From Candidatus Nomurabacteria bacterium (lineage in GTDB: Bacteria > Patescibacteriota > Minisyncoccia > Phycocordibacterales > UBA918): a stretch of DNA of 64,000 bases. Location: the NCBI GenBank assembly GCA_020632155.1, contig JACKGE010000001.1, positions 381,302 to 445,301 of the forward strand. The letters are read 5' to 3'. Both the position numbers and the translations under genes were made by a program. The notes under the pieces are model-generated. The model saw nothing but the letters and a program-made list of their open reading frames with translations, did not search any database and was not told the origin of the DNA. Positions 11,280 through 56,069 of the stretch are shown here, in pieces; position 1 is the first letter of the stretch; the number at the start of each line of letters is the position of its first letter.

Positions 11280-13475
11280 ATGAGAGATTTTTTGCAAGCG
11301 GTGGTCTTTATTGGCGTTTTTCTCACCTTGTTCATCCCCCTTATGGTGAGTGACACCATGTTTTTTCCGTTCATTACAGGAAAAAACTTTGCCTTCCGTA
11401 TCGTTGTTGACATCATTTTTGCTGCTTGGTTCATTCTGGCGCTTCTGGACACCAAGTACCGGCTGCGTTTCTCGTGGCTACTGCCAACCACACTGGGATT
11501 TTTGATCATTATCTTTTTTGCCGATCTCTTTGGTGAATACCCACTAAAGAGCCTGTGGAGTAACTTTGAGCGCATGGATGGGTTTGTGATGCTTGTACAC
11601 TTCTTCTTGTATTTTGTGGTGTTGGCACACACACTTCGCGAAAGCAAATACTGGACCTACTTCTTCAACACCACGCTCGGTGTTGCTACCTACGTTGCCC
11701 TGTACGGACTGGCGCGATCGTCGGGCTTGCTTGAAGGTGGTGGTGGCCGTATTGATAGTACGCTTGGTAACGCTTCGTACATGGCCATCTACATGCTCTT
11801 CCATATCTTTATCTTGGCGTATCTATTTCTCCACACTAAGAATCGTCTGCTGCAAGCGGTCTATGCCATTGGCTCAGTGCTCTTTGTATATATCCTCCTT
11901 GAGACCGGAACGCGCGGCACGTTCATTGGCCTTGCGGTCGGTACCTTTGTAGCGGTCTCTTACATGGCTCTCTTTGGCCGCGGGTATCCGCAGGTGCGTA
12001 AGATAGCTATCGGTAGTGCCATCATCGGTATTGTGGCCGCTGCAGCATTCTTTGTTTTTAGGGATAGCGCAGTGGTACAACAAAATCCAAGTATCGCTCG
12101 TATCGCTAATATCTCTACAGAAGATCTCACTGTGCGCGCCACTATTTGGGGGATGGCTTTTGAAGGCGTCAAAGAACGACCACTTTTGGGCTGGGGGCAA
12201 GGAAATTTCAACTACGTCTTTAACAAGAACTATGACCCGTCACTGTACGACCAAGAGGCATGGTTCGATAGGGTACACAATATTTTCTTCGACTGGCTCA
12301 TTGCCGGTGGTGTGTTGGGCTTCGTAGCGTACTTTAGCATTCTCTTTGCCTGTCTCTACTATCTATTCTGGCGTCCGCTATTTCATCATGATGCCCTCAA
12401 TGACGATGTCTCGTTCTCGGTCATTGAGCGTGCGCTACTGCTTGGCATCTTAGCTGGTTACTTTACGCACAACCTCGTGGTCTTTGATAACCTCGTGAGC
12501 TACATGTTCTACGCTGTTGTACTGGCGTACATCCATTCACGAGTCTCGACCGAGATACCGCGGGTTGCTGCCTACCGACCGGATCCAGTCATAGTGAAGC
12601 ATATTGTGGCACCGACCGTAGTGGTACTGACAGTAATGGTGATCTACCTCGTACACGTTCCGGGGATTTTGGCCGCCAAAGATATCATTGATGCCTTTCA
12701 GTCTGGTGAGCCGGCTGAGCGTTTTGGTGCCTTCGAACGCGCTCTTAGTCGCCACAGCTTTGCAGACCAAGAGATAACTGAGCAAATGGCGCAGCAGGCG
12801 ATGAACCTTGCTGCCTCTCCAGATGTTTCAGCTGAGACCAAGAGTAAGTATCTTGCTCAAGTAGAAGGGCATATTAAGAACTTGATCGAACAAAAACCAA
12901 ACGATGCCCGCCTCCACGTATTTCTAGCTGGTTTTTATCGTAATGCCAATCGTCTTGATGATGCGCAGCAGCAGATCGACCGCGCACATGAACTCTCGCC
13001 ACGCAAGCAAGCTATTATTCTCGAGCAGGGAACTGTTGCTGGTTTGCGAGGGGAGTATGATGAAATGAATTCTCAATATCAAGAGGCTTTTGAACTTGAT
13101 ACTGACAACACGTTAGCTCGATCGCTGTATGCTATTTCTTTCATCCCGCTTGGGGATATTGCTATGGTCCATGAGGTTGCTACTGGAACCTACTTTACTG
13201 ATCTGGCCACCAACAACATGGCGCTGTCTATGGCAGATCGTGAGAATGAAAATGAGTTACTGGCAGAGCTATTGACGGAGCGTATTCGAGTAACTCCTGA
13301 CGATTTGCAGAGTAGAGTTAGTTTGGCGTTTGTGTATTACCGAACCGACAATATTCCGATGGCAATAGAGACCCTAAATGAAGCTCGCCGTGACGTACCG
13401 AGTTTTGAAGCACAAGGAGCTTGTATCGTTTCAAATCTCGAAGCCGGACGACAGCCAGATCTAAACTGTCAATAA
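11280..13475 (+). CDS. O-antigen ligase/polymerase-like (Wzy_C family) polytopic membrane protein with C-terminal TPR-repeat domain
   Basis: N-terminal ~430 aa carry many TM segments with the WGMAFEGVKERPLLGWGQGNF loop typical of the O-antigen ligase family. The C-terminal ~280 aa are helical repeats (…AGFYRNANRLDDAQQQIDRAHELSP…). Confidence 0.7.
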   Translation: MRDFLQAVVFIGVFLTLFIPLMVSDTMFFPFITGKNFAFRIVVDIIFAAWFILALLDTKYRLRFSWLLPTTLGFLIIIFFADLFGEYPLKSLWSNFERMDGFVMLVHFFLYFVVLAHTLRESKYWTYFFNTTLGVATYVALYGLARSSGLLEGGGGRIDSTLGNASYMAIYMLFHIFILAYLFLHTKNRLLQAVYAIGSVLFVYILLETGTRGTFIGLAVGTFVAVSYMALFGRGYPQVRKIAIGSAIIGIVAAAAFFVFRDSAVVQQNPSIARIANISTEDLTVRATIWGMAFEGVKERPLLGWGQGNFNYVFNKNYDPSLYDQEAWFDRVHNIFFDWLIAGGVLGFVAYFSILFACLYYLFWRPLFHHDALNDDVSFSVIERALLLGILAGYFTHNLVVFDNLVSYMFYAVVLAYIHSRVSTEIPRVAAYRPDPVIVKHIVAPTVVVLTVMVIYLVHVPGILAAKDIIDAFQSGEPAERFGAFERALSRHSFADQEITEQMAQQAMNLAASPDVSAETKSKYLAQVEGHIKNLIEQKPNDARLHVFLAGFYRNANRLDDAQQQIDRAHELSPRKQAIILEQGTVAGLRGEYDEMNSQYQEAFELDTDNTLARSLYAISFIPLGDIAMVHEVATGTYFTDLATNNMALSMADRENENELLAELLTERIRVTPDDLQSRVSLAFVYYRTDNIPMAIETLNEARRDVPSFEAQGACIVSNLEAGRQPDLNCQ

Positions 13476-14491
13476 TGATAACCATCTTACCAGCAGAGCC
13501 ACTCCACAGACATACCACTCTTAACGTGGGCGGGGAAGCGGAGTACTTTGTTGCTGTCAAAGACAAAACAGAGGCAGTGAGCGCAGTAACTACTGCACTA
13601 GAGAAGAATTTACCTATTACAATTCTCGGCGGCGGCTCAAATGTATTAGTGTCTGATTCTGGTATCAAGGGCTTGGTCATTAAAAATAAGATAACTGGCA
13701 TCACATCAGAACAGAGTGGCGACAATATACTTGTGACCGCTGGTGCAGGTGAAGTGTTTGACGACCTAATCGCACACACGGTAGCAAAGGGTTGGTGGGG
13801 ACTGGAAAATCTCTCTCATATACCGGGTACGGTTGGCGCCACGCCCGTGCAAAATGTTGGTGCGTACGGGGTCGAGATTGCTGATGTACTTGTCTCTCTT
13901 ACTGCTATTGATACACGAACCGGTGAGGAGCGTGTTTTTAGTGCACCGGAATGTGAGTTTTGGTACCGCCGATCATTTTTTAAATCGGCGTTAGGCCGTC
14001 ACTATTTTATTACGAGTGTGACCTTTAAAGTACAAAGTGAAGCAAATCCACAAATTGCCTACCGTGACCTCGAACGATATTTCAAAGATCAAACCGATTA
14101 CGACCTTGAACACATTCGCGCTGCAGTCATTGATATTCGAAGCACCAAGTTTCCTGATTGGTCTGTGCTTGGCACTGCTGGTTCATTCTTTCAAAACCCA
14201 ATCGTTTCACCAACAGTGTATACAGAGCTAAAGAGTAGGTATCCAGAATTACCAGGTTACGAACAGACGGACGGAGTAGTTAAATTACCGCTGGGATGGA
14301 TACTCGACAAGATCGTAGGACTAAAGGGGCTGCGAGTCGGTAATGTTGGTATGTATGAAAATCAAGCGTTGGTACTGGTTAATTACGGCGGCGCTACCGC
14401 AGCTGAGATAACTGCGTTTGCAGAATCAATACAAGAGAAAGTGGCCGCGGCCACAGGCATCGAAATCGAGTGGGAGGTGACGAAGTTGTAA
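13475..14491 (+). CDS. murB: UDP-N-acetylenolpyruvoylglucosamine reductase (peptidoglycan synthesis)
   Basis: LNVGGEAEYFVAVKDKTEAVSAVTTALEKNLPITILGGGSNVLVSD FAD-binding PCMH domain. ATG overlaps the upstream stop (TAATG at 13473-13477). The ORF-track start at 13421 would overlap the upstream gene. Confidence 0.85.
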   Translation: MITILPAEPLHRHTTLNVGGEAEYFVAVKDKTEAVSAVTTALEKNLPITILGGGSNVLVSDSGIKGLVIKNKITGITSEQSGDNILVTAGAGEVFDDLIAHTVAKGWWGLENLSHIPGTVGATPVQNVGAYGVEIADVLVSLTAIDTRTGEERVFSAPECEFWYRRSFFKSALGRHYFITSVTFKVQSEANPQIAYRDLERYFKDQTDYDLEHIRAAVIDIRSTKFPDWSVLGTAGSFFQNPIVSPTVYTELKSRYPELPGYEQTDGVVKLPLGWILDKIVGLKGLRVGNVGMYENQALVLVNYGGATAAEITAFAESIQEKVAAATGIEIEWEVTKL

Positions 14492-14973
14492 ATCGTCTTG
14501 CACCAGATTAATTTTTTTAACAGTGTTAAGTGGTTGTTCGCTACTTCGTTGCCCACCTGTCACTGATTCGCTGCACTCATATCGCAGTTGCAAACGTGCA
14601 GTTTGCAGCGAATTAACTTTCTGCAGAGGTATATGGTAATTTTGTACTGCGTTGCCCACCTACACACTTGTTGCAAGCAACATCGTGTGTTCATTCACTA
14701 CGTTCATGATTAGATAAAAGAAAAAATTAATTTTCTTGTCCACCTATGAACTATCTCACTTCGTTCGACAAAGTTCATTCATTCGCTCTGCTCATGACCG
14801 GATAAAAAATTACACTAGTAATTTTTTATCCACAAATTTTTTTTACAAAAGACATTGTATAAATTTTTTTCCGCGCGATAATATACATACAAGCTGACAT
14901 TCTCTCAATGGGTTGTTCTTTGACAAGAGAACGTCGCGGTCGATTCTTTATACACTAAACTCACACCACACTT
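14492..14973. promoter_or_regulatory. 480-bp non-coding leader with three degenerate ~90-bp direct repeats (TTGyCCACCT ... TTCATTC ... CTCATGA), a small hairpin (TGCAAACgtgcaGTTTGCA) and an AT-rich promoter-like tract (TGTATAAAT, TTGACA) upstream of the histone-like gene
   Basis: No ORF >60 aa. Repeats seen at about 14555-14600, 14647-14700 and 14733-14800. AT-rich tract 14800-14900. Confidence 0.4.
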
Positions 14974-15186
14974 ATGCCAGCAAAAAAGAAAGCTGCCAAG
15001 AAGACAGCGCGCAAGTCTACTAAGAAGACAGTTCGCAAGGCTGCTAAGAAGACCGCAAAGCGCGCACCTAAGAAGGCTGCGAAGAAGACAACCAAGCGTA
15101 AGGCTGCGAAGAAGACTGCTAAAAAAGCAGCAAAGCGCAAGCCAGCTAAGAAAGCTGCCAAGAAGGCTGTACGTCGCAAGAAGTAA
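14974..15186 (+). CDS. histone H1-like lysine/alanine-rich DNA-binding protein (Hc1/AlgP-repeat-like)
   Basis: 70 aa, MPAKKKAAKKTARKSTKKTVRKAAKK... composed almost entirely of AAKK/TAKK repeats. Followed by a rho-independent terminator. The antisense ORFs are artefacts of the repeat. Confidence 0.75.
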   Translation: MPAKKKAAKKTARKSTKKTVRKAAKKTAKRAPKKAAKKTTKRKAAKKTAKKAAKRKPAKKAAKKAVRRKK

Positions 15187-15208
15187 ATTCCTTACTTCAT
15201 TCGACACA

Positions 15209-15240
15209 CAAAACCCGCTCTCCACAGCGGTGTTTTGTTT
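15209..15240 (+). terminator. rho-independent terminator after histone-like gene
   Basis: AAAACCCGCTCtccacAGCGGTGTTTTGTTT: GC stem plus U-run. Confidence 0.6.
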
Positions 15241-15278
15241 GTCTGAGCAGGCGCTTTAGCTCGGTTTCTTTCTGTGGT

Positions 15279-17804
15279 ATGCTAGCGGCTATGTCATTTC
15301 TGGACCGATTCTTTGGACCGACCTACGAGAAGGAACTCAAAAAGATACAACCCCTAGTAGCTCAAATAAACGACCTCAGTGAACGCTTTAGCGGCTACTC
15401 TGACGACGAGCTCAAGGGACTTTCTGCAGAGTTCAAGGGGCGGGTTAGTGCCGGTGAAACGCTTGATGAACTCCTACCGGAGGTGTTTGCTGCTGTGCGC
15501 GAGGCAGCGGGCCGTACCCTTGGTATTCGCCACTACGACGTGCAGCTTATCGGTGGTCTACTTTTGCATCGCGGACAAATAACCGAGATGCGTACCGGTG
15601 AAGGTAAGACGCTTGTTGGAACCTTGCCAGCATACCTCAACTCTCTTACTGGTAAAGGTGTACACGTAGTGACGGTAAACGATTACCTAGCACGCCGTGA
15701 TGCTGTATGGATGGGGCAGGTATATGCAGCCCTTGGTGCATCAGTTGGTGTTATTAATCACAGCTCCTCATTTCTTTACGATGAACATCATGGTGCAGAA
15801 GATGAAGAGCGCGACGCTGAAGGCTCATTCAAAGTTCATCACGAATTCCTTCGTCCCTGTGAACGTCAAGATTCATATCGAGCTGACATAACCTACGGTA
15901 CTAATAGTGAATTTGGTTTTGATTACTTGCGCGACAATATCGAGTTTGATGCGAAGCGCTTGCGGCAACTACATCATGCGTACGCCATTGTCGATGAGAT
16001 TGACTCTATTTTAATTGACGAAGCACGTACACCGCTTATCATCTCGGCCCCAGCCGCTGATTCAGAAGACCTCTATACGGTCTTTGCACGCGTTGCTATG
16101 CGCCTTAAGCCGGACGAGCACTATACGGTGGATGAAAAACTTAAAAGCATTGCGCTTACTGATGAGGGTATTGAAGCAGCTGAGAAGGCTCTCGGTATTG
16201 ATAATATTTATACTGACAAAGGCATTAAGTATGTACATCACCTAGAGACTGCGATTCGGGCCAAAGCACTCTATACTCGGGACAAGGAGTACGTGGTTCG
16301 TGATAATGAAGTGGTCATTGTTGATGAATTCACTGGTCGTCTGCAACCGGGGCGTCGCTGGTCCGATGGCCTCCATCAAGCGGTTGAGGCAAAAGAGGGT
16401 GTGGAGATACAGCGTGAGAGCAAAACGTACGCGTCGATAACGTATCAGAACTATTTCCGCATGTACGAGAAACTCTCGGGCATGACTGGTACCGCGCTTA
16501 CCTCACAAGAGGAGTTTTATACGGTCTATGGCCTTGAAGTAGTTCCCGTGCCTACCAACCGAGCAGTGCAACGTATTGACCGCAATGACCTGATTTTCCA
16601 GACCGAGAAAGGTAAATTTACCGCCGCTATCGCTAAAATCAAAGAAGTGAATGAGAAAGGACAGCCAATTCTCGTCGGCTCAGCGTCTATCGACAAAAAC
16701 GAACTTCTTTCTGCTGAGCTTACCAAAGCTGGTGTCAAACATGAGATGTTAAACGCCAAGAACCACGAACGAGAAGGAGAGATCATTGCTGAAGCAGGAC
16801 GCAAGGGGGCAGTGACCCTCGCTACCAACATGGCTGGTCGTGGTGTTGACATCAAACTTGGTGGTGCTAACGCCACTGATGCACAAGAGAAAGAGGTTCT
16901 TGAGCTCGGCGGATTATTTGTACTTGGTACCGAGCGACACGAAGCGCGACGTATCGACAATCAATTGCGTGGTCGTTCTGGACGCCAAGGCGACCCCGGA
17001 GAGACACAATTTTATGTTTCCATGGAAGACACGCTTATGCGAGTGTTCGGCGGCGACCGTATTAAAGGCCTTATGGGCACCTTTGGCATTCCTGAGGATC
17101 AACCGATCGAGAATAAGATGATCACGCGGCAGCTTGAATCAGCTCAAACACGTATTGAAGGTTTCCATTTTGATGCTCGTAAACAGGTACTTGCGTACGA
17201 TGACGTACTTAATCGTCAGCGGCAGGTCATCTATGCTCGGCGCCGTAAGCTTTTGACTGGCGCTACAGAAGAAGTTAGTGAGCTACTTGAGGAAGTTAAG
17301 GTAGCAGTGCCCGAGGCAGTACCAGCCATTGAAGCCAAGGCTAAAGAATTTGATGAGACTACGTGGTTTGACCTGTTGCGTCGCCTCATGCTCCAAATGG
17401 TAGATATTATCTGGGTGGAACACCTTGAAGTAATGGGGTACGCACGCAGCAGTGTTAATCTTCGTGCGTACGGGCAACGTGATCCCCTTATTGAATACCG
17501 CAAGGAAGGGAAGCGTTTATTTACTGAAATGCAGGGAAACACTCTCCACCGTATTGCAGAAGTGATACCAAACCTTCAGGTGAAGGCGATTGAAAAAGAG
17601 GAAGCAGAATTACGTAAACAGAAGGAACAAGCTCAACAAGTCGGAGCTGCTGCCAATGGAGGAGATAATAGTCCAGTTATCAAAGCGGCTGGTCATGGCC
17701 GTAATGAAATAGTGACCATCACTAACGGTACTGACACACAGGAACTCAAGTACAAAAGGGCACTGCCGCTTATCGAGTCTGGCGAGTGGAAACTCAAAGC
17801 CTAG
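15279..17804 (+). CDS. secA: preprotein translocase ATPase SecA
   Basis: 841 aa. N-terminal LDRFFG...LIGGLLLHRGQITEMRTGEGKTLVGTLPAYLNSLTGKGVHVVTVNDYLARRD and full-length colinearity with SecA. Confidence 0.95.
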   Translation: MLAAMSFLDRFFGPTYEKELKKIQPLVAQINDLSERFSGYSDDELKGLSAEFKGRVSAGETLDELLPEVFAAVREAAGRTLGIRHYDVQLIGGLLLHRGQITEMRTGEGKTLVGTLPAYLNSLTGKGVHVVTVNDYLARRDAVWMGQVYAALGASVGVINHSSSFLYDEHHGAEDEERDAEGSFKVHHEFLRPCERQDSYRADITYGTNSEFGFDYLRDNIEFDAKRLRQLHHAYAIVDEIDSILIDEARTPLIISAPAADSEDLYTVFARVAMRLKPDEHYTVDEKLKSIALTDEGIEAAEKALGIDNIYTDKGIKYVHHLETAIRAKALYTRDKEYVVRDNEVVIVDEFTGRLQPGRRWSDGLHQAVEAKEGVEIQRESKTYASITYQNYFRMYEKLSGMTGTALTSQEEFYTVYGLEVVPVPTNRAVQRIDRNDLIFQTEKGKFTAAIAKIKEVNEKGQPILVGSASIDKNELLSAELTKAGVKHEMLNAKNHEREGEIIAEAGRKGAVTLATNMAGRGVDIKLGGANATDAQEKEVLELGGLFVLGTERHEARRIDNQLRGRSGRQGDPGETQFYVSMEDTLMRVFGGDRIKGLMGTFGIPEDQPIENKMITRQLESAQTRIEGFHFDARKQVLAYDDVLNRQRQVIYARRRKLLTGATEEVSELLEEVKVAVPEAVPAIEAKAKEFDETTWFDLLRRLMLQMVDIIWVEHLEVMGYARSSVNLRAYGQRDPLIEYRKEGKRLFTEMQGNTLHRIAEVIPNLQVKAIEKEEAELRKQKEQAQQVGAAANGGDNSPVIKAAGHGRNEIVTITNGTDTQELKYKRALPLIESGEWKLKA

Positions 17805-21263: not shown

Positions 21264-21296
21264 AAAAACCGCGAGATATCCACTCGCGGTTTTTTG
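21264..21296 (+). terminator. rho-independent terminator after gatB
   Basis: AAAAAACCGCGAGatatccactCTCGCGGTTTTTTG. Confidence 0.8.
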
Positions 21297-21324
21297 TCAC
21301 CACCTGTATAATAGGGCACAGCAT

Positions 21325-22209
21325 ATGGAAACTATCTCGGTTAATGGAGAAACCTTTATAAAAGCCAACATTCTGGCCCGAGAACTCGGCTACACAGCAG
21401 ACTATGTTGGGCAGCTGTGTCGTGGTGGCAAAGTGAAAGCAGAGCTCGTGGGGCGAAGTTGGTTTGTAGAACCAGAATCCCTTCGGTCTCATCGTAAGGG
21501 TCGTTATCGAAGTGTAGCTAAGAAATCTAAGCTACAGATAGAAAAGCAAACTAAGACCACTGAGACAGTACCGGCCAAGGAAGGGTCAACTCACATACCG
21601 ATCAATAAGCATTTTTACAGTCGTGGTGTACAAAAGAATGTTCGGTATGAAATGGACGAAAGCGAATTGATGCCAGCAATCAAGCCCACTGACAAAGGAG
21701 AGTCTTCACGTTTGCAAGTACATTTGGCAGAAGCGCGGCAAATGAACATAAAAAGCACTGAAAAAGCCTATAAAATGGAAGCTACAGAGCTCCCAACATT
21801 TAAACGTGACGGCACCCTTACGATAGCGGAAGCTCCTGAACTTGCAGAGAATCCAGTATCAGAAGCAAAAAAAACGCCAAAAAAGGGTACGCACAAGAGC
21901 TCAGAAGCAAAATCGCGGCACGTAAACGTACATAGTAGTGATAGTGCGGAAGTGGTTCCTATTGCCACTGCAGTTAAAACACACAAAAAAAGGACCGTAA
22001 CAGCAAAGCGCAGGACAGCTCAAAAGGGCCATGGCCTTAGAGCGCTGTGGTGGGTGTTTGTGTGGGTGGCAGTCAGTGCTCTTGGGCTGATTATAGCTAC
22101 GCTTGAGTACCACACAAGCGTAGGCGGTAACGTTTCTGACAGTTATTCGTTTGAGCCAGAAAATATAAAAACAATTTTTGAAATAGCAAAAATGTACCTA
22201 AAAATATAG
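21325..22209 (+). CDS. membrane-tethered protein with N-terminal excisionase/MerR-like HTH (HTH_17-like), one TM segment and extracytoplasmic C-domain
   Basis: N-terminus ARELGYTADYVGQLCRGGKVKAELVGRSWFVEPESL. Single hydrophobic helix LRALWWVFVWVAVSALGLIIATL near the C-terminus. Paralog of 22575..23294. Confidence 0.55.
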   Translation: METISVNGETFIKANILARELGYTADYVGQLCRGGKVKAELVGRSWFVEPESLRSHRKGRYRSVAKKSKLQIEKQTKTTETVPAKEGSTHIPINKHFYSRGVQKNVRYEMDESELMPAIKPTDKGESSRLQVHLAEARQMNIKSTEKAYKMEATELPTFKRDGTLTIAEAPELAENPVSEAKKTPKKGTHKSSEAKSRHVNVHSSDSAEVVPIATAVKTHKKRTVTAKRRTAQKGHGLRALWWVFVWVAVSALGLIIATLEYHTSVGGNVSDSYSFEPENIKTIFEIAKMYLKI

Positions 22210-22574
22210 TTTTTTCGTGTAGCCGAGATTTATTTTGCCAAGCCTACATAGCTGGTTGTGTAAAAATACAGGCCTTGTTTGCCCTGATGGTGTGTAAGGG
22301 CTGATTGTTCCGGTTTGTAACTGTAAGGTCCTTATTTCTTGTCAGGGCTTTTTCTCTAAGTACAAGGGAGAGTAGGGTTGCTGGTTTCGGAGGCGGCGGC
22401 TCAGGCCTGTAGGCGGGTGCTGAACAGGTTGTACTTCACATAAAAAAGAAGTGGTCTTGATCGAGTAGAGGTCTCCCTGCTGCAGGACAAACAGGTGTTT
22501 TTTACTGTCCACATATGGAGCGTTTTTGAGCCAAAAAAAAGGCGAAATCACTATAAAATATATAGCAATATCGT

Positions 22575-23294
22575 ATGAGCTTCGATCCTTCACCACAGGC
22601 TAAATTCATACCCGTTAAAGAAGCCGCCAAACTGGTCGGCTACACGACCGACTACGTCGCTAAGTTGGCGCGGGAGGGAAAGGTCGATGCACGGCGCAAT
22701 GGTCGACAGTGGTTCGTTGGCCGCGACTCAGTGAAACTCTTTTCACTGCAGCAAGAGGAGCTCAAAAAAACTCGTCAACAAGAATTAAAAGAGCAGCGTC
22801 TTAGAGAGCGTCATGGTGAGGTGAGTACGGCATCGCCATCGGTAGCAAAAATCGAGAAACAAGAAAGTGGAGCGCATGAAGCGCTCGCGACTACGGCCGT
22901 GGTGTTTGCTTCAATCTGCATTATGACCGTCCTCTCACTTTCTGTAGTTGAAAATAAGATCTCGTTTTCAGACATAGGGGCGACGATTGCTGGACTTGCA
23001 GCACGCGTTGGTAGTGTCGCAAATGTTATAGACGGGACTGATTGGTGGCCGCCACAAGGACTCCATCAGGTTGCTCTTGATGGGGAGGCAGTTGGTGGCC
23101 TTAGAGACCTGCCACAGGTAGATAGCAATGAAGCCCGCATCTTGCTTCCGAACAATGAGAATGCTACGTCTGCCGCACGGTATTTTTCTGACGAGGTCAT
23201 GGTGAAGACCAGTGCGAATGGTGCGGTAATAACACCGGTCTTTCGCAGTGGTACTTCAGAACAGGCGTTTGTGATTGAGGATAGTACCGAGTGA
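22575..23294 (+). CDS. paralogous membrane-tethered HTH protein
   Basis: N-terminus AKLVGYTTDYVAKLAREGKVDARRNGRQWFVGRDSV (same motif as 21325 ORF). TM helix ALATTAVVFASICIMTVLSLSVV, then a ~110-aa C-terminal domain. Confidence 0.55.
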   Translation: MSFDPSPQAKFIPVKEAAKLVGYTTDYVAKLAREGKVDARRNGRQWFVGRDSVKLFSLQQEELKKTRQQELKEQRLRERHGEVSTASPSVAKIEKQESGAHEALATTAVVFASICIMTVLSLSVVENKISFSDIGATIAGLAARVGSVANVIDGTDWWPPQGLHQVALDGEAVGGLRDLPQVDSNEARILLPNNENATSAARYFSDEVMVKTSANGAVITPVFRSGTSEQAFVIEDSTE

Positions 23295-23304
23295 GTTTTT
23301 ACGT

Positions 23305-26010
23305 ATGAGCAAGCGTATCATTATCAACCGAATACTACACACAACTACACTTGGTCTTTTGCTCGTGCTTAGCCTTAGTCTCCTTAGCTCTCTTGCGGAG
23401 GCGGCGCCAAACTACCAGATCAACTATCAAGGTAAGCTCCTCGATAGTTCTGGCTCTCCGGTGGCAAATGGTTTATACGACATGGAGTTTAAGCTCTATA
23501 CCGTTCCTACCGGTGGCAGCGCCATTTGGACCGAAACACGCACTGGTGGTAATCAAGTGATGGCCACAAGCGGCCTGTTCTCAGTGATGCTCGGTGAAGT
23601 AGCCTCTCTCTCTGGAGTTGATTTTGATCAAACGCTCTACCTAGGAGTGAATATCGAGGGTGACGGTGAGATGTCACCGCGCAAAGTGCTTGGCTCCGTA
23701 CCGGCTGCATTTGAGGCGGCACACGCAGCTGATAGTGATACCGTGGGCGGTGTTGCTTCTTCCTCGTTCCTCAGAAGTGATGCAGCTGACACAGCTTCAG
23801 GCTTGCTGACATTCACTGGAGGACTTGTCAGTACAGCCTCTAGTACCATCACTGATCTTACGTTCACTACTGCTACTGCTACAACGCTCGTCATAAACGG
23901 CGAAGCCTTTACTGACTTTACGGGCACTGCACTTGTAAACACCGGTGGGGTACTCTCAGTTTCAACCTCGTCACTGGCAGTGTACTTTGCGTCGACGTCT
24001 GATTTTAATACCGAAGCAAAGTTGGAAAGTATTTTGACTGACGTCACCAACATATACACCAACAACGACGGTTCCCTCAGTGACGACGACCTCAGCAACA
24101 ACAGCACCACCGACCTCGCTGAAGGTACTAACCTCTATTTCACGACTGCTCGCGCTTCTACCACTGCAGCGCAAGTCCTCTTTGCTACCACAACCCTTCC
24201 AAACCTTACGACCTTAGCCAACCTTTCTACCGTTGGCACCATCACCTCCGGAACGTGGAACGGCACCGCCATCGGTGACGCCTACCTCACCAAGACTGGT
24301 GACTGGACCGGCACCTTCGACGGACAGGAGGGGAGTTACTATCTCAATGCCGACAATCTCACCAACCTCGATGCTAGTGATATTGCTCTTACCAACGGTT
24401 ACGTTCTGCGCGGTTCAGCAGGTGGCACCGCTGAGGCCACTAGCTCACTCTTTATTACTGACGCTGGAAATGTGGGGATTGGGACAACGACGCCAGATTA
24501 CCCACTTGAAGTGGTTGGCCGTACCGAACTCCACGGCATCACTGTTGTTGACGGCCGTTCTACCAGTGTTGATGGCCCTCACTTCACTGTTAGTGATGAT
24601 GCCAACCTGCCCCTGTTTGACATCTCGTCTTCCTTTGGCCAAACCTTTATCAACAGCAACAAGAATGCCCGCTTCTTTGACAGTGTCTACCTTGCTGACG
24701 AGCTCCAAGACGTCACTCAATCAGCTGGTTCCAATGGGTACATTCTACAGTCAACTGGTACCAGTACGCTGTGGACCGACCCTACTAGTCTTGGTTTCAT
24801 TGCTACTACCAGTGGCAACTGGACCGGCACCTTCGACGGACAGGAGGGGAGTTACTACCTAGACCTCGCCAATGCTACGGGTGATACTGACGACCTCACC
24901 GAAGGCAGCACCAACCTCTTCTCTCAGTGGGGCACCTCTGGCTCTAACGTCTACTACAACAGTGGAAATGTGGGGATTGGGACGACAAGTCCGCAGACCA
25001 CCTTGCATGTCTCAGACACCAGTGCAATTTTGCGACTTGACCCGACCGGAGCAAGTGGGGATGCTTCCATCCAATACTACGCTGACGCTGCTGCTCGCTG
25101 GTCAAGTGGTGTAGATAATGATGATAGCTACAAATACAAGATATCTACCGGATCTGCTCTTGGTAGTGGTGAGGCGCTGACTATTGATACCTCCGGCAAC
25201 ATTGGTATCGGAACCACAACACCAGATCAAATACTTACGGTTGCGGGTAACGCATATATAACGGGCGGAGCTACAACCAGCGACCTCTATGTTACCGATA
25301 CGTTCAGTGGGGCCGGTTTAACCGCTTGTAGTGGTTCTGCCTCTAAACTCCTGTGGAGCTCTACAACACAGCAATTTGTTTGTGGAGCTGACGCTGGCGC
25401 TGGCGGGGGTATCACCGCACTTGGTGTGGCTGGTTCGTACCAAAGCGGTTCTACGCAGACCCTTGCCACTTCCAGTGATACTAACCTAGAACTCACTATT
25501 GTCTCAAGCGGCGATACACATACATTTACACCGGTTTGGAACGGCACACTCGCTGTTGGACGTGGTGGTACCGGCGCAGGTTCTTTCAACGCTGGTGAAC
25601 TCCTCGTCGGCAACGGTACCGGCGCCCTTACCTCGACCACTACCGCTGGACTCAAAGCCACATTGGCGCTCGACAATGTAGAGAACACCGCGCTCTCGAC
25701 GTGGCTGGCTCAAGCAATATCACGACACTCGGCACGATTGGTACCGGCATCTGGAACGGCACTGCCATCGGTGACGCCTACCTCACCAAGACCGGCGACT
25801 GGACCGGCACCTTCGACGGACAGGAGGGGAGTTACTACCTCAACGCCGACAATCTCACCAACCTCGATGCTAGTGATATTGCTCTTACCAACGGCTACGT
25901 CCTTCGTGGTTCAGCTGCTAACACTGCCGAAGCTACCAGCTCGCTCTTTATTACTGACGCTGGAAATGTGGGGATTGGTACTACGACGCCAGATTACCCA
26001 CTTGAAGTAG
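23305..26010 (+). CDS. giant tail-fibre-like surface protein, 5' segment (signal peptide; reading frame is lost at ~25696 and the remaining ORF is out-of-frame translation)
   Basis: MSKRIIINRILHTTTLGLLLVLSLSLLSSLAEA signal peptide. Repeated GNVGIGTTTP and GTWNGTAIGDAYLTKTGDWTGTFDGQEGSYYL modules. After nt ~25696 the ORF translates the alternative frame of the repeat (…ISRHSARLVPASGTALPSVTPTSPRP…). Confidence 0.6.
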   Translation: MSKRIIINRILHTTTLGLLLVLSLSLLSSLAEAAPNYQINYQGKLLDSSGSPVANGLYDMEFKLYTVPTGGSAIWTETRTGGNQVMATSGLFSVMLGEVASLSGVDFDQTLYLGVNIEGDGEMSPRKVLGSVPAAFEAAHAADSDTVGGVASSSFLRSDAADTASGLLTFTGGLVSTASSTITDLTFTTATATTLVINGEAFTDFTGTALVNTGGVLSVSTSSLAVYFASTSDFNTEAKLESILTDVTNIYTNNDGSLSDDDLSNNSTTDLAEGTNLYFTTARASTTAAQVLFATTTLPNLTTLANLSTVGTITSGTWNGTAIGDAYLTKTGDWTGTFDGQEGSYYLNADNLTNLDASDIALTNGYVLRGSAGGTAEATSSLFITDAGNVGIGTTTPDYPLEVVGRTELHGITVVDGRSTSVDGPHFTVSDDANLPLFDISSSFGQTFINSNKNARFFDSVYLADELQDVTQSAGSNGYILQSTGTSTLWTDPTSLGFIATTSGNWTGTFDGQEGSYYLDLANATGDTDDLTEGSTNLFSQWGTSGSNVYYNSGNVGIGTTSPQTTLHVSDTSAILRLDPTGASGDASIQYYADAAARWSSGVDNDDSYKYKISTGSALGSGEALTIDTSGNIGIGTTTPDQILTVAGNAYITGGATTSDLYVTDTFSGAGLTACSGSASKLLWSSTTQQFVCGADAGAGGGITALGVAGSYQSGSTQTLATSSDTNLELTIVSSGDTHTFTPVWNGTLAVGRGGTGAGSFNAGELLVGNGTGALTSTTTAGLKATLALDNVENTALSTWLAQAISRHSARLVPASGTALPSVTPTSPRPATGPAPSTDRRGVTTSTPTISPTSMLVILLLPTATSFVVQLLTLPKLPARSLLLTLEMWGLVLRRQITHLK
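24241..24775 (+). repeat. ~530-bp near-identical intragenic direct repeat, copy 1
   Basis: Near-identical to 25746..26275 (encodes TWNGTAIGDAYLTKTGDWTGTFDGQEGSYYLNADNLTNLDASDIALTNGYVLRGSA...GNVGIGTTTPDYPLEVVGRTELHGITVVDGRSTSVDGPHFTVSDDANLPLFDISSSFGQTFINSNKNARFFDSVYLADELQDVTQSAGS). Confidence 0.8.
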
Positions 26011-28553
26011 TTGGCCGCACCGAACTCCACGGCATCACTGTTGTTGACGGTCGTTCTACCAGTGTTGATGGCCCTCACTTCACTGTTAGTGATGATGCCA
26101 ACCTGCCCCTGTTTGACATCTCGTCTTCCTTTGGCCAAACCTTTATCAACAGCAACAAGAATGCCCGCTTCTTTGACAGTGTCTACCTTGCTGACGAGCT
26201 CCAAGACGTCACTCAGTCGGCCGGTTCTGCTGGCTACGTGCTTCAATCTACCGGTACTAGTACGCTGTGGGTCGCAACAAGCAGTCTCGGAATCAGCGCT
26301 GGTGGCGGTGGTACGGTGAGTAGCGTTGCAGCGAGTGTCCCGACTGGTTGGACAGTGACTGGTAGTCCGATAACTGCTACAGGAACTCTTGCGTTTGACT
26401 ACGACACCGGCTACGGCGCCGTCCTTATAGCCAGTACCACTGACTGGCAAACCGCCTACAGTTGGGGCAACCATGCCGCTGCCGGCTATCTCGACGGTAC
26501 TGACATCGGTTCAACCGTCCAAGGCTACAATGCCAACACCACCATCCTCGGTTCTACCATTAATGCTAACGAACTAGCGAGCGAAGACTTCGGTGACTTC
26601 ACCTGCAATGGCACAACGTGCTCCCTTGATGCTGACACCGTGGCGGCCTCTGAAATGGCCGACAGTGATCACGGCTTCTTCTCATACAGCTCCGGAGTAG
26701 CATCTCTCGACACCGATGGCCTCACTAGTGCCAACCTGTCTGGTGCGCTCACTAATGAGACTGGTACTGGAAGTGTCGTGTTCTCAAGTTCACCGACTCT
26801 CACCACACCAGATCTTGGTACTCCAAGTGCAATTACTCTAACCAATGCTACCGGCCTCCCGCTCTCAACTGGCGTCACTGGCACGCTTGATATCGCCAAC
26901 GGTGGTCTTGGCATCTCATACACCGATCCAAATGCTGATCGCATTCTCTTCTGGGATGATAGTGCTGGTAGATTTTGCCAACCTGACAGCTTCAACCGGA
27001 CTCACCCTTACTGGCACTAACCTCACTGTCCGTAGTGCCTCAGAATCTCAGACTGGTATTGCCGAGTTTGCTACTCAAACCGAGGTCAATACCGGAACCG
27101 ATACTACGCGTGTGGTACGCGCCAATACCCTTGGTGCGTGGCCTGGCACCACCAACCTCACCACCCTCGGCACCATCACTACCGGAACGTGGAACGGCAC
27201 CGCCATCGGTGACGCCTACCTCACCAAGACTGGTGACTGGACCGGCACCTTCGACGGACAGGAGGGGAGTTACTACCTAGACCTCGCCAATGCTACGGGT
27301 GATACTGACGACCTCACCGAAGGCAGCACCAACCTCTTCTCTGATGGACCACCTCTGGCTCTGATATTTGCAGTGGAAGTGTTGGAATTGGTATTGACGA
27401 GTCCATTCAGCACAACCACTAAAACGCTCACCGTTGATGCTGGAGGGGTTCATCTGGCAATATGCCGGCCTTGAACTACGTGGTGGCAAATGGTAATTTG
27501 CTGGAAATAGTGAAATTGGTTTTTTGCTGGAGAGGACGCTTACGAGCACTCGCGTATGAGCTGATGTAACGGGTGGCGGGATCTTGGTTGGAAATCGGCC
27601 TTTATACCAACCAGAATTCTGCAGCGAATCTCACAGAACGAATGCGCGTTAACTATCTTGGTAACGTCGGCATCCGGGACGACAGGTCCGTGAAGCTTGA
27701 CGTGGTTGGGAATATCCGTGCATATACTACTACAAGTAATAACGGCCTTATTATTTCATCAGGAAGTACCAATACTGGTGCTCGAAACTGGTTCGTTGGC
27801 GCAAACACTCCTGTGGCTTATGGTGATTTTGCTCTGCAGCAGTCAAATGCACTGGGTGGTGATCCACGCACTGCTGGTACGGCACGGTTGTATACGCTCC
27901 TCCGGGTCGGCATCACCACCACTCCATCAGAACTCCTGCATGCGCCTGGCGATGCCCGTATAGAAGGACGCTTTATGACAGCACTTCACCAAGCGGTGCT
28001 CTCGGCTACGTCCTCCAAACTACCGGCACGGAGAGTACCATGGTGGCGATCAAGTCTTGGCCGTGAACACCAACACAATTAACTGTGAAAGCGGGTAGAG
28101 GTTATATATTTGATGGCAGCAACAGTGGCACGCTCTCTTCTGGAACTTGGCACTTTGATTCACTTACAGATGATACAGTTAGATGATACATATAACACCC
28201 TCGGCATATCTCGACAGTACTGTAGCAGATGGCGCTCTTTCAATGCCAACGTCTCACTCTACTCGGCAGCGCTATAGACCCACTGGATCTTGCAGACGAT
28301 GATTTCGGAGACTTTTCTTGCTCCAGTGGTATCTCTGTACCTTTGATAACGACACCATCGCTCCAGCCGAGATGGCTGATGCTGACACGGCTTCTTCTCA
28401 TACAGCTGGAGGGTAGCTTCGCTTGACAGGTGGCCTTACCAGTGCAAACCTCGCATCTGCCCTCACTAATGAAACTGGTGGCAGTGCGGTGTTTCAGCTT
28501 CGCCAACTCTCACTACCTAACCTCCAGTACACCAAGCGCTGTCACATTAACTA
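25697..28553 (+). pseudogene. frameshift-riddled, degenerate paralogous segments of the giant surface-protein gene (or assembly errors in a collapsed repeat)
   Basis: Homolog-guided comparison shows 1-nt indels at ~25696 (tggcctggc -> tggctggc), ~26962 (aacttt -> agatttt), and ~27345-27474 (premature stop). Fragments 27573..28082 and 28229..28768 still encode recognisable modules (GNVGI, DLADDDFGDFSCSSG, TNATGLPISTG) but in shifting frames. Confidence 0.5.
25746..26275 (+). repeat. ~530-bp intragenic direct repeat, copy 2
   Basis: See copy 1. Only scattered synonymous or conservative differences between the two copies. Confidence 0.8.
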
Positions 28554-31500
28554 ATGCAACTGGTCTCCCAATTAGCACTGGCCTTAGTGGTGCTGGAACC
28601 GGCGTCCTTACTGCTCTTGGTGTTAACATCAGGTTCCTTTGTGGTCAATGGTGGCGCTCTTGGCACCCCATCCTCAGGTACTCTCTGCAACGACTGGCTT
28701 ACCACTCTCTACCGGGTGACTGGCACACTTGGTATTGCCAATGGCGGTCTTGGTGTCTCATACACTGATCCAAATGCAGACCGTATCTTATTCTGGGACG
28801 ATAGTGCTGGCAACTTCGCTAACCTTGTCGCCTCAACTGGTCTTACTTTGTCGGGCACCAACCTAACGGTCCGAGCTGCTTCAGAATCACAAACTGGTAT
28901 TGCTCCGCAAAGGAGTTTGCTACTCAAACCGAGGTCAATACCGGAACCGATACTACGCGTGTGGTACGCGCCAATACCCCTCGGTGCGTGGCTGGTCACC
29001 AACCTCACCACCCTCGGCACCATCACTACCGGAACGTGGAACGGCACCGCCATCGGTGACGCCTACCTCACCAAGACTGGTGACTGGACCGGCACCTTCG
29101 ACGGACAGGAGGGGAGTTACTACCTAGACCTCGCCAATGCTACGGGTGATACTGACGACCTCACCGAAGGCACAACCAACCTCTTCTCCCAGTGGACCAC
29201 CTCCGGCTCTGATATCTACTACAACAGTGGAAATGTTGGTATTGGGACGACGACGCCGGACCAGCCCCTGGTCGTCCTTGGTGGTACTGCAAGTACAGCA
29301 CCAAACCTACTCACTATCCAGTCAAATGAAGGTGGTAGCACCAGTCCGGGCGATGTGTACGCCGGTATTCAGTTTGGTGTATATGGGGGAGAGAATGGCA
29401 GTGGTGCACAGCCAGTAACCGCCTTTATCAAAGCGGTTGATACGAGAGCTGGCGCTACTTCAAATGAAGACGGGGGACTTTCTTTTGGAACCCTGAATTC
29501 CACCGGCGGTCCGACAGAACGGATGATTATTACTCACGATGGTAAGGTCGGTATTGGCACCTCTGATCCGTCTGACACTCTCAATGTTGCTGGTAACACC
29601 GACATTACCGGTGAAGTGCAGATTGATGGAACATTGTCTATCGGTGGCGTCGCGCCGAACAGTTCACGCAGTCTCTATATAAATGACTCATTCACTGATG
29701 ATGCAGCTACGTACGGCATATATAACCTAACCAACTTCGGCTCCTCCATAAGTGGAAACCGTACACCATATAGTAGTTTCAATAAACTTACGGTCGACGG
29801 GTATACCTTAAATTCTAATACTCTTAACCCAGCGGGTGTGTATGGCGAAGTCGAGATATTAAATGGCAATGAAGATGTTGGTAGCGCCCGTGGATTATAC
29901 TCGGTTGTAGATAACCAAAATACCAGTGGTACATTGGACGCTAGTTACGCCATTGATGTACTTACCCAAACTTCGGCTAATTCTACTACTACCAACGCGT
30001 ATGCGTTTAGAAGCAATTTAACCAATAACGGCTACATCGGTAACTACTACGGTATTTATCTCACGGATGTAGTAGAGGGAGGGCAGGGCAATGCCTACGC
30101 GTTCTGGACCAATGAAGGAGACGTTGTTCTTGACGGCGACGGCGACGGTGTTGCAGGTGGTACCGATGTTGGCACCAACCTTTTCTTTGGCGAAAGTCAA
30201 GATGCAGCAATTTGGTATGACGGCGCCGATTTTAACATTGATCCGCAAATCGTTGGTTCAGGTGATCTGCTCATACCAAACGGCAACGTTGGTATTGGTG
30301 ACCCGACACCTTCATCTAAACTTGATGTGTACGAAAATAGTACCAATGCCGCTGGTGCGAGTGGACTTACACTAGAACAAGCTGGTACTGGTGATGTAAA
30401 CATTTCATTCCTACTGACGGGTACACGACGTTGGAATGTTGGTGTCGACAACAGTGATAGTGATAGGTTCAAAATCCTCTCCGACAATAGCAATGATTAC
30501 AGTGGTTCAGGACTGGTGATTAACACGAATGGTAATGTCGGCATCGGCGCAGCCGACCCCTCTGTGGCTAAACTGCAAACGTACGTGAATGATACAAGCT
30601 CGTACCAAAATCTCATTGAGCAGGACAGTACTGGTGACTCGGCACTCTCGTTCCTTTTAACAGGCACTAAACAATGGATCGTTGGTATTGATAATAGCGA
30701 CGGTGACAAGTTCAAGATCGGCGAAGGAGGTGCTGTTGATTCTGAAACCGCACTAACCATTGATACGTCTAGTAATGTTGGTATTGGTATCACTGACCCA
30801 AGCACCTACTTACAAATTACCCGAGCATCAAACGCGTGGCCAGCGACTTCGGGAACCACTCAAAGTACTGGCCAATATATGCGCCTCGGAAACAATACTG
30901 GTTCTGTTCTTGATATCGGTGGCAACAGTACCTCAGGCCAGTGGCTACAATCCACAAACGCCACCAATCTTGCCACCAATTATCCGCTACTCCTAAATCC
31001 AAATGGTGGCAACGTCGGTATCGGTGATTCCTCTCCAGCCAGTCTATTCACCGTCGGTAACGGCGACCTGTTCCAAGTAAACTCCTCTGGTGACATTATC
31101 ACGCAGTCTGTTGGTGTCGATGCACTGGAGAGCGAAGACTTCGGTGACTTCACTTGCAATGGCACGACGTGTACTCTCGACGCTACCTATCTGACGGGCA
31201 ACCAAACCATCACCCTTTCTGGAGACGTCTCTGGTTCTGGTGCTACCAGCATCAGCACCACTCTGGCGGCTGACACCGTTGATTATTCAAATATCGATTA
31301 CTCAGCAGTCATTGGTAGCGACCCATCATTTGGAGCTAGTGAGACCTTCTTTGGCACTACCGGTGTCATCTTTGAAGGATCGTCTGCTGATACATTTGAA
31401 GGGCTCCTTACCACCACCAATATTACCGGTTCAGATAAGACATGGACATTGCCAAATACCACCGGCACCATCGCGCTCCTAACGAGTGCTATGACCGGTA

Positions 31501-38805: not shown

Positions 38806-38907
38806 TAGAGCATATCCACACAGGCGTATGGGTGGGAATAAAAATGGTAGTGGGTGGGGTATAATTAAGTGATATCCAATTAACAACCTAGCCGTTTTGT
38901 ATTTACT

Positions 38908-39612
38908 ATGTCGTTAAATCTTTCGTATCGGGCACTCTACCAAGCCCTCAGCAGCGCTGTCATACTTGCCGTATTGGCTGCTACTATATATGTGTTCTAC
39001 GAACCGGTGTCTACTCATGCTCAAGACTCGCAGACATTTACTGTCACGCAGGACATTACCGGTGAGATATCACTCACTCTGAGTACCACTACAGTCATTA
39101 TGGTTGGTCCGATTGCTGGTCTTACCGGAGGGGCTGCGACTGGTAGTATCAGTGCTATTGTGACCACTAACGACCCAGACGGCTACAATATGACCATCGA
39201 GTTCCCGTACGCAACTACAACCGGCATGGACGGTAATAACACAGCGGCGTATATCAACCATTACTCACCAGCAGTTGCTGGTACCCCAGACTATGCTTGG
39301 GTGGATAATTCAACTGGCGGCGCAGCTGAGTTTGGGTACACTGTGAGTGCTTCTACCAGTGCTGACCTAGGCCTTGTCTTTCAAGATGATGGCGGCGGTA
39401 ACTGTGGTGGCGGCGGTAATGACACTACCGCGTATAGCTGTTGGCTGAATGGTACCAACACCCCGATCACTATCACTAACCGCACCTCTGGCTCAGCCAC
39501 CAACGCCACTACCACTATCGTATTTCGGGTAAATGTACCAAACAACCCTTCACCAACCATTGATATCGATACGTACACAGCTACCGCCACATTGACCGCC
39601 ACTAACAATTAA
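38908..39612 (+). CDS. secreted beta-rich surface/fimbrial-like protein (paralog of 40718..41479)
   Basis: Signal anchor AVILAVLAATIYVFY. Thr/Ser/Gly-rich mature region shares ...LTxxxVxxGxxGGxAxGxxSxxVTTxxxxGYxxxI... and C-terminal ...CWxG...TTT(I/V)xF(R/Q)V...TYxAT(A/T)T(L/I)TA with the 40718 gene. Confidence 0.55.
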   Translation: MSLNLSYRALYQALSSAVILAVLAATIYVFYEPVSTHAQDSQTFTVTQDITGEISLTLSTTTVIMVGPIAGLTGGAATGSISAIVTTNDPDGYNMTIEFPYATTTGMDGNNTAAYINHYSPAVAGTPDYAWVDNSTGGAAEFGYTVSASTSADLGLVFQDDGGGNCGGGGNDTTAYSCWLNGTNTPITITNRTSGSATNATTTIVFRVNVPNNPSPTIDIDTYTATATLTATNN

Positions 39613-49681: not shown

Positions 49682-49747
49682 AGATTATATCAGTGCCGGA
49701 GTGTGTAAAACGAGAAGTGTGAACACACGCACACAGTATAATGAAAA

Positions 49748-55995: not shown

Positions 55996-56069
55996 CCTTG
56001 AGACAGTTTCCCAAACTGTTTCAACTCTAACCACCTTCACTAATGTGGCAGATACGTTTAAACCCTGAG

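Follow-up and report, generated by a model that had tools for sequence, protein, structure and literature searches.

Escherichia coli rrnB P1 carries the Fis sites I to III, and the sites of class I activators lie near -61.5. DnaA boxes are also found upstream of promoters; the 9-mer TTATCCACA is the DnaA-box consensus (PMC8203912), and in E. coli DnaA binds preferentially where two boxes are separated by 2-3 bp (PMC11317965). In this study these systems are compared with a 482-nt spacer (positions 14492-14973) that separates murB from a gene for a small histone-H1-like protein in contig JACKGE010000001.1, of which a stretch of 64,000 nucleotides (hereafter the window) was analyzed. The host is an ultra-small bacterium of the Patescibacteria (Paceibacteria, 'Kaiserbacteria'-type). 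The spacer resembles rrnB P1 and class I promoters in that a conserved element keeps a constant distance of 47-52 nt to the -10 hexamer, that an A/T-rich tract fitting an UP element follows it directly, and that further copies occur upstream in this species. Unlike in those promoters, the 9-mer element equals the DnaA-box consensus and is not a Fis or CRP site, and the extra copies are degenerate, species-specific and unphased. The probable explanation of these copies is a local tandem duplication of a terminator/box module in this species, which left weak orphan boxes that are neutral or at most auxiliary. The conserved module beside them, made up of TTATCCACA, the UP-like tract, a promoter and a leader, is apparently undescribed and of more interest than the repeats; a literature search returned nothing on this box motif or on H1-like genes in Patescibacteria.

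An earlier sequence-only reading of this DNA had described three degenerate direct repeats of about 90 bp in the spacer, and these are real: the 10-mers lie where it had placed them, and the homology of the units goes beyond that of shuffled sequences. The units were delimited by a seed-based repeat search and pairwise alignment (Table 1). The boxes, TTGCCCACCT at 14549 and 14652, TTGTCCACCT at 14736 and TTATCCACA at 14826, are spaced by 103, 84 and 90 bp, which are also the unit lengths. The pattern TTGYCCACMT has three matches in the 64 kb where 0.63 are expected, all three of them inside the spacer, and four of the five window matches to TTRYCCACM fall inside a 286-nt part of the spacer, all on the + strand. 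When units 2 and 3 were aligned over their full length, the Smith-Waterman score was 43, compared with a mean of 16.7 and a maximum of 30 for shuffled sequences (0/1000). A score of 42 was obtained for the 56 nt ending in box 3, which take in segment Q1, against the 56 nt ending in box 4 (within 14778-14835; 0/1000 shuffles), and the 51 nt upstream of box 1 resemble the 51 nt upstream of box 2 (1/1000 shuffles as good). Beyond the box, the similarity of unit 1 to units 2 and 3 is borderline (~50/1000 shuffles). The best ungapped direct repeat pairs TACTTCGTTGCCCACCT with TACTGCGTTGCCCACCT at 16 of 17 positions, a match reached by none of 300 dinucleotide shuffles. The repeats are not an assembly artefact, because the same spacer is found in three further assemblies (L001, L002 and L004; 99.6-100% identical). 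Two details of the earlier description stood only in part. A TTCATTC..CTCATGA motif does follow the box in units 2 and 3 (after 28 and 32 nt), but unit 1 has only the weaker ATTCGCTGCACTCATA 7 nt after its box. The spacer is indeed the longest of the window, but by a small margin; the gap next in length among those free of a long open reading frame (ORF), 28083-28553, measures 471 nt, holds only short ORFs and lies directly upstream of an ORF of 2231 amino acids.

Taken as a whole, the array consists of four copies of a terminator 5'-arm-like element, 29-50 nt, and a box. Degenerate terminator arms open each unit (TGCAGCGAATTAAC at 14603, TGATTAGATAAAAG at 14707 and TGACCGGATAAAAA at 14795), and TTGCACCAGATTAATTTTTTT, at the start of the array, matches the terminator 5' arm TTGCACCGGATAAAATTTTTT of a related contig, L006, at ~20 of 24 positions when the sequences are read by eye. 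Only the last copy retains the perfect palindrome, the consensus box and the promoter. Boxes 1-3 differ from TTATCCACA at positions 3 and 9 (and boxes 1-2 also at position 4), and no -10-like hexamer follows them at +47 to +52. They share the derived states G3, C9 and T10, which suggests that one diverged copy was duplicated again.

Relatives were collected by a SecA-anchored scan of GTDB genomes and Joint Genome Institute (JGI) metagenomes, which yielded 160 related loci (numbered with the prefix L); the DNA comparison of the repeat units covered the first 87 of these. The gene order Wzy-murB-(small Lys/Ala-rich gene)-secA is widely retained, with Lys/Ala-rich ORFs at the equivalent position. 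At the DNA level, only the 3'-terminal 175 bp, roughly a third of the spacer (window ~14804-14971), is conserved. When 15 and 30 loci were aligned, they shared an invariant TTATCC-CA, ~20 A/T-rich nucleotides, an invariant TGT (within TTGTnT), 16-17 nt and an invariant ATAAT (within GATAAT); downstream of the -10 hexamer come AAGC, a hairpin, the invariant GCGGTCGA, a CUCUCAUCACA-like tract and ATG, in that order. A profile hidden Markov model of this core, built without the window, matches 14826-14979 from end to end (E = 1.3e-29) and has exactly one match per locus in about 50 non-self loci. The same profile does not match units 1-3 even at E <= 100, and Smith-Waterman comparison of the units with the core gave scores no better than shuffles. 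The distance from the end of murB to the box, calculated from the locus coordinates, is 15-143 nt in 12 relatives versus 335 nt here, and the extra ~300 nt are the three units. In relatives, the 450 nt upstream of the main box contain no second box, the only exceptions being a coding-region match in L013 and another in L111, and among the compared loci the units are restricted to this species. Conservation in relatives, which the sequence-only reading had offered as a test, therefore had a split outcome: the repeat part is not conserved and the 3' part strongly is.

Box 4 is the lineage-wide part of this array. In the 30 aligned loci it is invariant except at position 7, and exact copies of TTATCCACA number 96 in 1.08 Mb of related loci against 12 expected (eight-fold), 93 of them on the gene strand. 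Of 137 loci, 68 have it upstream of secA at a distance of up to 700 nt, and a -10-like hexamer starts 47-52 nt after the start of the box in 74 of 92 distinct boxes. With the predicted transcription start near 14890, box 4 would span about -64 to -56. The tract ACAAATTTTTTTTACAAAAGAC that follows fits the UP-element consensus of E. coli, NNAAAWWTWTTTTNNNAAANNN. The promoter was not called by a simple scan because its -35 hexamer matches TTGACA at only 3 of 6 positions. Judged by this conservation, TTATCCACA is the invariant ancestral promoter element of fixed position and the three upstream boxes are derived, which reverses the earlier view of the last box as a fourth degenerate copy. The A/T-rich tract noticed at that time is indeed promoter-like. 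By contrast, the proposed leader of 480 nt could not be upheld: because the conserved predicted promoter lies at 14855-14882, the leader would be only ~84 nt long, and because the repeats lie upstream of both this promoter and a terminator-like palindrome, they belong to the 3' region of murB and not to the leader of the H1-like gene.

That palindrome (14800-14831) folds with -15.5 kcal/mol (z = -6.3), and its 3' arm overlaps box 4. It has the makings of an intrinsic terminator, with 14 pairs followed by ACAAATTTTT, though only 3 of the pairs are G-C. Of 47 relatives, 23 have a palindrome of differing sequence in the equivalent position (fold z < -2), both arms have changed in a compensatory way between L006 and the window, and in L010 the murB stop codon is just 6 nt upstream of the palindrome. 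We read the palindrome as a predicted intrinsic terminator that closes the murB operon. In several relatives, perfect A/T-rich palindromes of great length, with arms of up to ~26 bp, were also seen between the murB stop codon and the box (L012:1683-1732, L017:3334-3381, L029:3524-3568, L101:39-104 and others). Each species has its own sequence here, and such palindromes may serve as terminators in both directions or be DNA prone to form cruciforms.

The model proposed here is that 14800-14973 would represent the ancestral regulatory module, composed of the terminator palindrome, TTATCCACA near -60, the UP-like tract, TTGTAT-16-GATAAT and a leader of ~84 nt with a hairpin and the invariant GCGGUCGA, and that 14498-14799 would hold three decayed tandem copies of a module of terminator 5' arm, spacer and box. 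The copies may have arisen by slippage or unequal recombination and would have been inserted between the murB stop codon and its terminator, with a copy number that would still vary between strains. They would have kept the box-like TTGYCCACCT and gained unrelated hairpins, with no UP tract, -35 or -10 element behind them. The repeats are probably transcribed as the 3' untranslated region (UTR) of murB. As DNA they would supply three weak orphan boxes of the same orientation, at distances of ~150, 240 and 340 bp ahead of the predicted start; most likely these boxes are neutral, and at best they would be low-affinity sites that assist the factor binding TTATCCACA. A neutral or at most auxiliary role is favored because boxes 1-3 are without a -10 element, without similarity to the profile and without a counterpart in relatives, because one strain is without two of the units, and because the boxes differ at positions that are invariant in the 30 orthologous promoters.

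The strain in question is represented by L006, in which unit 1 is fused straight to the last copy and terminator, with 14607-14796 (two units) absent. The junction lies inside a repeated element (TGCAGCGAAT / TGACCGGAT), and the deletion would be the pattern expected of unequal recombination between units. Homology of the units together with this one short contig identifies the array as a tandem repeat with copy-number variation. Such a repeat is like variable-number tandem repeats (VNTRs) of intergenic regions in its head-to-tail degenerate units, its periods of 84-104 bp, a copy number that differs between close strains and a junction in a repeated element. Unlike those of VNTRs, its units are highly diverged (~65% identity, with indels), and each has one well-kept 10-mer. 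The repeats are thus a fresh instance of a known event, the tandem duplication of a cis-regulatory/terminator module, a modest result that shows how cis-regulatory sites multiply in a streamlined genome. Closer relatives were few: the MurB cluster at 90% identity has a single member, exact-protein look-ups returned only the same allele and L006, and SecA has no closer match in GTDB or JGI than 74-77% identity. Four independent contigs of the same species start at this spot (L003 and L005 at 14821, L007 at 14860 and L006 at 14572), and contig starts in or just after the repeat/terminator region would fit breaks in the assembly graph that arise from heterogeneity of repeats or strains.

Several caveats weigh against the duplication of a largely neutral module. 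One is that L006 is a single metagenome contig of 730 nt that starts inside unit 1 and could be a chimera. Another is that the search for further copies of the unit in this genome covered 64 kb only. The promoter, the transcription start and the terminator are all predicted from conservation. Hairpins X1 and X2 fold better than shuffles (z ~-3.3), which is not expected of purely neutral decay. The box is also the best-kept part of the unit, identical at 10/10 positions between units 1 and 2 and at 9/10 between units 2 and 3 versus ~65% elsewhere, and this retention weakly hints at constraint (rough binomial p ~0.01-0.09). The same retention favors a selected auxiliary array of operators or activator sites, in which the factor at about -60 would also occupy the three TTGYCCACCT boxes and raise its local concentration or form loops, tuning expression of the H1-like gene, much as Fis sites II and III lie upstream of E. 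coli rrnB P1. The four boxes do form a tight cluster in one orientation, box 3 and its flanking sequence agree with the site at 22500-22517 at 15 of 18 positions, and the related element of the HTH_17-like genes tolerates 1-2 mismatches at a constant position, CTGTCCACA being one such variant. However, the deviations of boxes 1-3 from positions invariant in the orthologous promoters count against such an array, as do spacings that are not helically phased, the absence of more than one box from every relative and the strain variant without two units. The iterated operators suggested earlier keep some plausibility, since the fourth box is found upstream of promoters throughout the lineage. We hold a selected array to be doubtful.

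The repeats could also act at the level of RNA, either as hairpins in the murB 3' UTR that stabilize the upstream mRNA or as small RNAs whose C-rich UUGCCCACCU would pair with purine-rich ribosome-binding regions. No terminator lies between the murB stop codon and 14800, and both X1 and X2 form stable hairpins (z ~-3.3), with z = -3.5 for the fold of the entire spacer; the letters themselves also show that CCACCU is complementary to AGGUGG. We nevertheless find an RNA-level role unlikely, given that there is no match to an Rfam family, the units are not conserved in any relative, X3 and the pre-box hairpins that would pair with boxes 1 and 2 fold no better than shuffles, and there are no unit-specific promoters. 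A known RNA family was rejected because 14400-15300 has no Rfam match: at E <= 10 the best hit there was TD-2 on the minus strand, with 28 bits against a cut-off of 48.7, and nothing was credible. In the whole window, the tRNA at 56070 is the only Rfam match at gathering level, and a tRNA/tmRNA scan found only a tRNA-Thr at 56069. A coding remnant or mini-ORF was rejected as well. Counted from the TTG of the box, the TAA at the end of the B motif falls in one frame in unit 2 and in another in unit 3 (our own reading of the sequence), so that no peptide is conserved, and the ORFs are short and unsupported.

The position of the array downstream of murB also brings to mind repetitive extragenic palindromic (REP) sequences, bacterial interspersed mosaic elements (BIMEs) and miniature inverted-repeat transposable elements (MITEs), which it resembles in having a short conserved motif and a hairpin in the 3' region of an operon. 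On that account the array would be the remnant of a miniature mobile or REP-like element inserted in the murB terminator. The layout, a short conserved motif followed by a variable hairpin, would fit, and an imperfect inverted repeat (AGCGAATTAA / TTCATTCGCT; I9) lies close to the two ends of the 190 nt absent in L006. Such a remnant is very unlikely, though, because unlike REP/BIME and MITE sequences the array is the spacer of a single locus with no dispersed copies found, and because the homology of its units to the terminator/box segment already present at this site suggests that they arose locally. A dispersed MITE or REP element, and with it the miniature repeat element of the sequence-only reading, was rejected after blastn of the repeats against the 64-kb window, the first 87 loci and a phage collection, and an exact-pattern scan of JGI metagenomes, all came back empty. 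The repeats can be said to be neither the leader nor promoters, and not a known RNA or mobile element.

Since the 9-mer has the sequence of a consensus DnaA box, a replication origin or a datA-like cluster that titrates DnaA also had to be weighed. Like oriC and datA clusters, the spacer has several box-like 9-mers in one orientation next to A/T-rich DNA. One of them, box 4, has the exact DnaA-box 9-mer (TTATNCACA / TTATCCACA); boxes 1-3 (TTGCCCACC, TTGCCCACC and TTGTCCACC) have 3, 3 and 2 mismatches. Unlike at oriC or datA, there is no skew switch (GC skew is positive on both sides of 14.7 kb), the flanking genes are all on the + strand, no dnaA lies in the window and no dnaA/dnaN nearby, only one box is consensus, and no pair has the 2-3-bp spacing preferred by DnaA (PMC11317965). 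In relatives the single box is locked to the -10 hexamer. This makes an origin or titration site hardly credible. As oriC the locus was rejected, with no switch in skew or gene orientation, no DnaA signature in the window or loci and a single box in relatives.

The conserved element is not confined to the H1-like gene. In the window, the combination of box and -10 hexamer occurs at 14826, at 22505 and at 38812. The similarity at ~22505 pointed out by the sequence-only reading is well founded: TGTCCACAT is present, with CTGTCCACA at 22505-22513 and a -10-like hexamer at +49 (region 22505-22557), ahead of the second of two genes for membrane-anchored proteins with an N-terminal HTH_17-like domain (21325-22209 and 22575-23294), and the HTH_17-like genes of relatives carry the same box. 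Among these, an exact or one-mismatch box precedes ~40% of family matches versus 4% of control positions (the list includes duplicate hits) and lies about 60-65 nt upstream of the start codon; the constant position at which 1-2 mismatches are tolerated is 59-68 nt from that codon. Examples in relatives with both box and -10 hexamer are L033:8554 and 9653, L046:8368 and 9452, L043:8733 and L036:9021. At 38812, ATATCCACA precedes a gene for a secreted Thr/Gly-rich protein (38908-39612; region 38812-38865). These sites suggest a small regulon of the H1-like gene, HTH_17-like membrane protein genes and a secreted protein gene. Two further sites were noted. At 21276 (region 21276-21312), ahead of the HTH_17-like gene at 21325-22209, a box-like ATATCCACT lies in the loop of a terminator hairpin, only 31 nt from TATAAT, and at 49710 on the minus strand TTTTACACA has a -10-like TATGAT at +47, just upstream of the only nearby minus-strand gene (48671-49681); the latter may be another member of this promoter group or a chance match.

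Two candidates may be named for the protein that would bind the element. DnaA is the obvious candidate because the 9-mer is the textbook DnaA consensus, and like DnaA boxes in described promoters, box 4 is a consensus TTATCCACA upstream of a promoter (PMC8203912, PMC11317965). However, neither in the window nor in the aligned relatives does box 4 have a second box at a spacing of 2-3 bp, so that, unlike E. coli DnaA sites, it is a single box without a partner and with its position strictly fixed to the -10 hexamer. A single box so placed weighs against DnaA and is more typical of a class-I-type activator. The apparent targets (the H1-like gene, HTH_17-like membrane protein genes and the secreted protein gene) also differ from those of DnaA-regulated promoters. 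The HTH_17-like proteins are equally good candidates because the box precedes their own genes, a classic sign of autoregulation. A more far-reaching view, which we rate as quite unlikely, is a regulon across Paceibacteria with TTATCCACA as its operator, in which either DnaA as a class-I-type activator at about -60 or an autoregulated membrane-anchored HTH_17-like protein would drive H1-like, HTH_17-like membrane and surface proteins, and in which the operator would have been amplified here into a four-box, datA-like sink that buffers the regulator. If true, this regulon would couple replication status to chromatin supply in minimal cells.

The leader is conserved in about 50 loci (equivalents in L008-L125), with GCGGUCGA invariant and a CUCUCAUCACA tract before the AUG; in the window a C/A-rich tract precedes the ATG, and the leader has no Shine-Dalgarno-like sequence. 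In the alignments its hairpin pairs UUCUCUC with GAGAGAA around a conserved UUGUUCUUUGA loop, with compensatory changes in 4 of 6 pairs. The structured RNA leader proposed earlier therefore has a basis in this conserved 3' part, with its covarying hairpin, but not in the repeats. This leader may serve in autoregulation or represent a new RNA motif. Regulators are few in Patescibacteria, and few of these bacteria have been cultured or are open to genetic work; for this reason a defined operator, promoter and leader give a concrete handle for protein-DNA binding assays, the reading of metatranscriptomes and the building of expression tools. The module, in the form TTATCCACA, UP-like tract, TTGTNT, 16/17 nt and GATAAT followed by the structured leader, is common to at least 50 Paceibacteria loci, and its predicted architecture is apparently that of a very strong promoter.

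Table 1. Features of the murB-secA region (window coordinates)
Feature	Position	Strand	Basis
murB (UDP-N-acetylenolpyruvoylglucosamine reductase), last gene upstream of the spacer	13475-14491	+	Pfam FAD_binding_4 and MurB_C
Pre-box segment P1, opening with terminator 5'-arm-like element TTGCACCAGATTAATTTTTTT (14498-14518)	14498-14548	+	Homologous to 14602-14651
Box 1, TTGCCCACCT, derived orphan	14549-14558	+	Motif search
Hairpin X1, ATTCGCTGCA / TGCAGCGAAT, 10-bp outer stem	14564-14615	+	Inverted repeat I6; -19.6 kcal/mol, z = -3.2
Pre-box segment P2, degenerate copy of P1	14602-14651	+	Repeat family D4; alignment
Box 2, TTGCCCACCT, derived orphan	14652-14661	+	Motif search
Hairpin X2, ACACAC..GTGTGT, inner stem GTTGC/GCAAC	14662-14690	+	-11.4 kcal/mol, z = -3.4
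Segment Q1, B motif TTCATTCACTACGTTCATGA and degenerate copy of the AT-rich palindrome	14690-14735	+	Family D5; fold z = -2.8
Box 3, TTGTCCACCT, derived orphan	14736-14745	+	Motif search
Weak hairpin X3, ATGAACT / AGTTCAT	14746-14778	+	Inverted repeat I8; -4.9 kcal/mol, z = -1.6, not significant
B motif of segment Q2, TTCATTCGCTCTGCTCATGA	14778-14797	+	Family D5; alignment
Perfect 14-bp AT-rich palindrome GGATAAAAAATTAC-ACTA-GTAATTTTTTATCC, then T run	14800-14831	+	Inverted repeat I1; terminator scan
Box 4, TTATCCACA, lineage-wide upstream promoter element, center ~-60	14826-14834	+	Sole exact match in the window
A/T-rich UP-element-like tract ACAAATTTTTTTTACAAAAGAC	14832-14853	+	A/T-rich conserved in alignment A4
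Predicted sigma-70-type promoter, TTGTAT, 16-nt spacer, GATAAT	14855-14882	+	TGT and ATAAT invariant in 30 loci, fixed spacing
Conserved ~84-nt 5' leader of the H1-like gene	14890-14973	+	Alignments A2, A4 and A5
Leader part AAGC	14891-14894	+	
Leader hairpin arms TTCTCT / AGAGAA around loop TTGTTCTTTGA	14900-14905 / 14926-14931	+	
Leader part, invariant GCGGTCGA	14936-14943	+	
Histone-H1-like gene, Lys/Ala-rich, 70 amino acids	14974-15186	+	ORF
Terminator of the H1-like gene, upstream of secA	15215-15230	+	Terminator scan
secA	15279-17804	+	Pfam

The local gene order is a glycosyltransferase gene, a gene for a Wzy_C/TPR membrane protein (11280-13475), murB, the spacer, the H1-like gene, a terminator and secA, and nearly all genes of the window are on the + strand. 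The murB product has 338 amino acids in public gene calls, where it is named UDP-N-acetylmuramate dehydrogenase of Candidatus Kaiserbacteria, and a public protein look-up found identical proteins in GCA_020428955.1 and several wastewater-type assemblies. The product of the H1-like gene has no Pfam match. Its gene contains degenerate repeats of the AKK/KKTAKK type, visible as the direct-repeat families D1-D3, and a scan for K/R/A-rich ORFs at the same position in relatives gave longest open frames of 37-112 amino acids, some of which include upstream codons; the length of this gene is clearly evolving fast. Elsewhere in the window, 23000-30000 has a GC content of 0.52-0.54 and negative GC skew (23-30 kb) with genes still on the + strand, and at 34-39 kb a GC content of 0.54-0.56 and a strong positive skew of 0.12-0.16 surround ORFs of 2231 and 995 amino acids. 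These anomalies of composition may be acquired DNA or genes for giant surface proteins.

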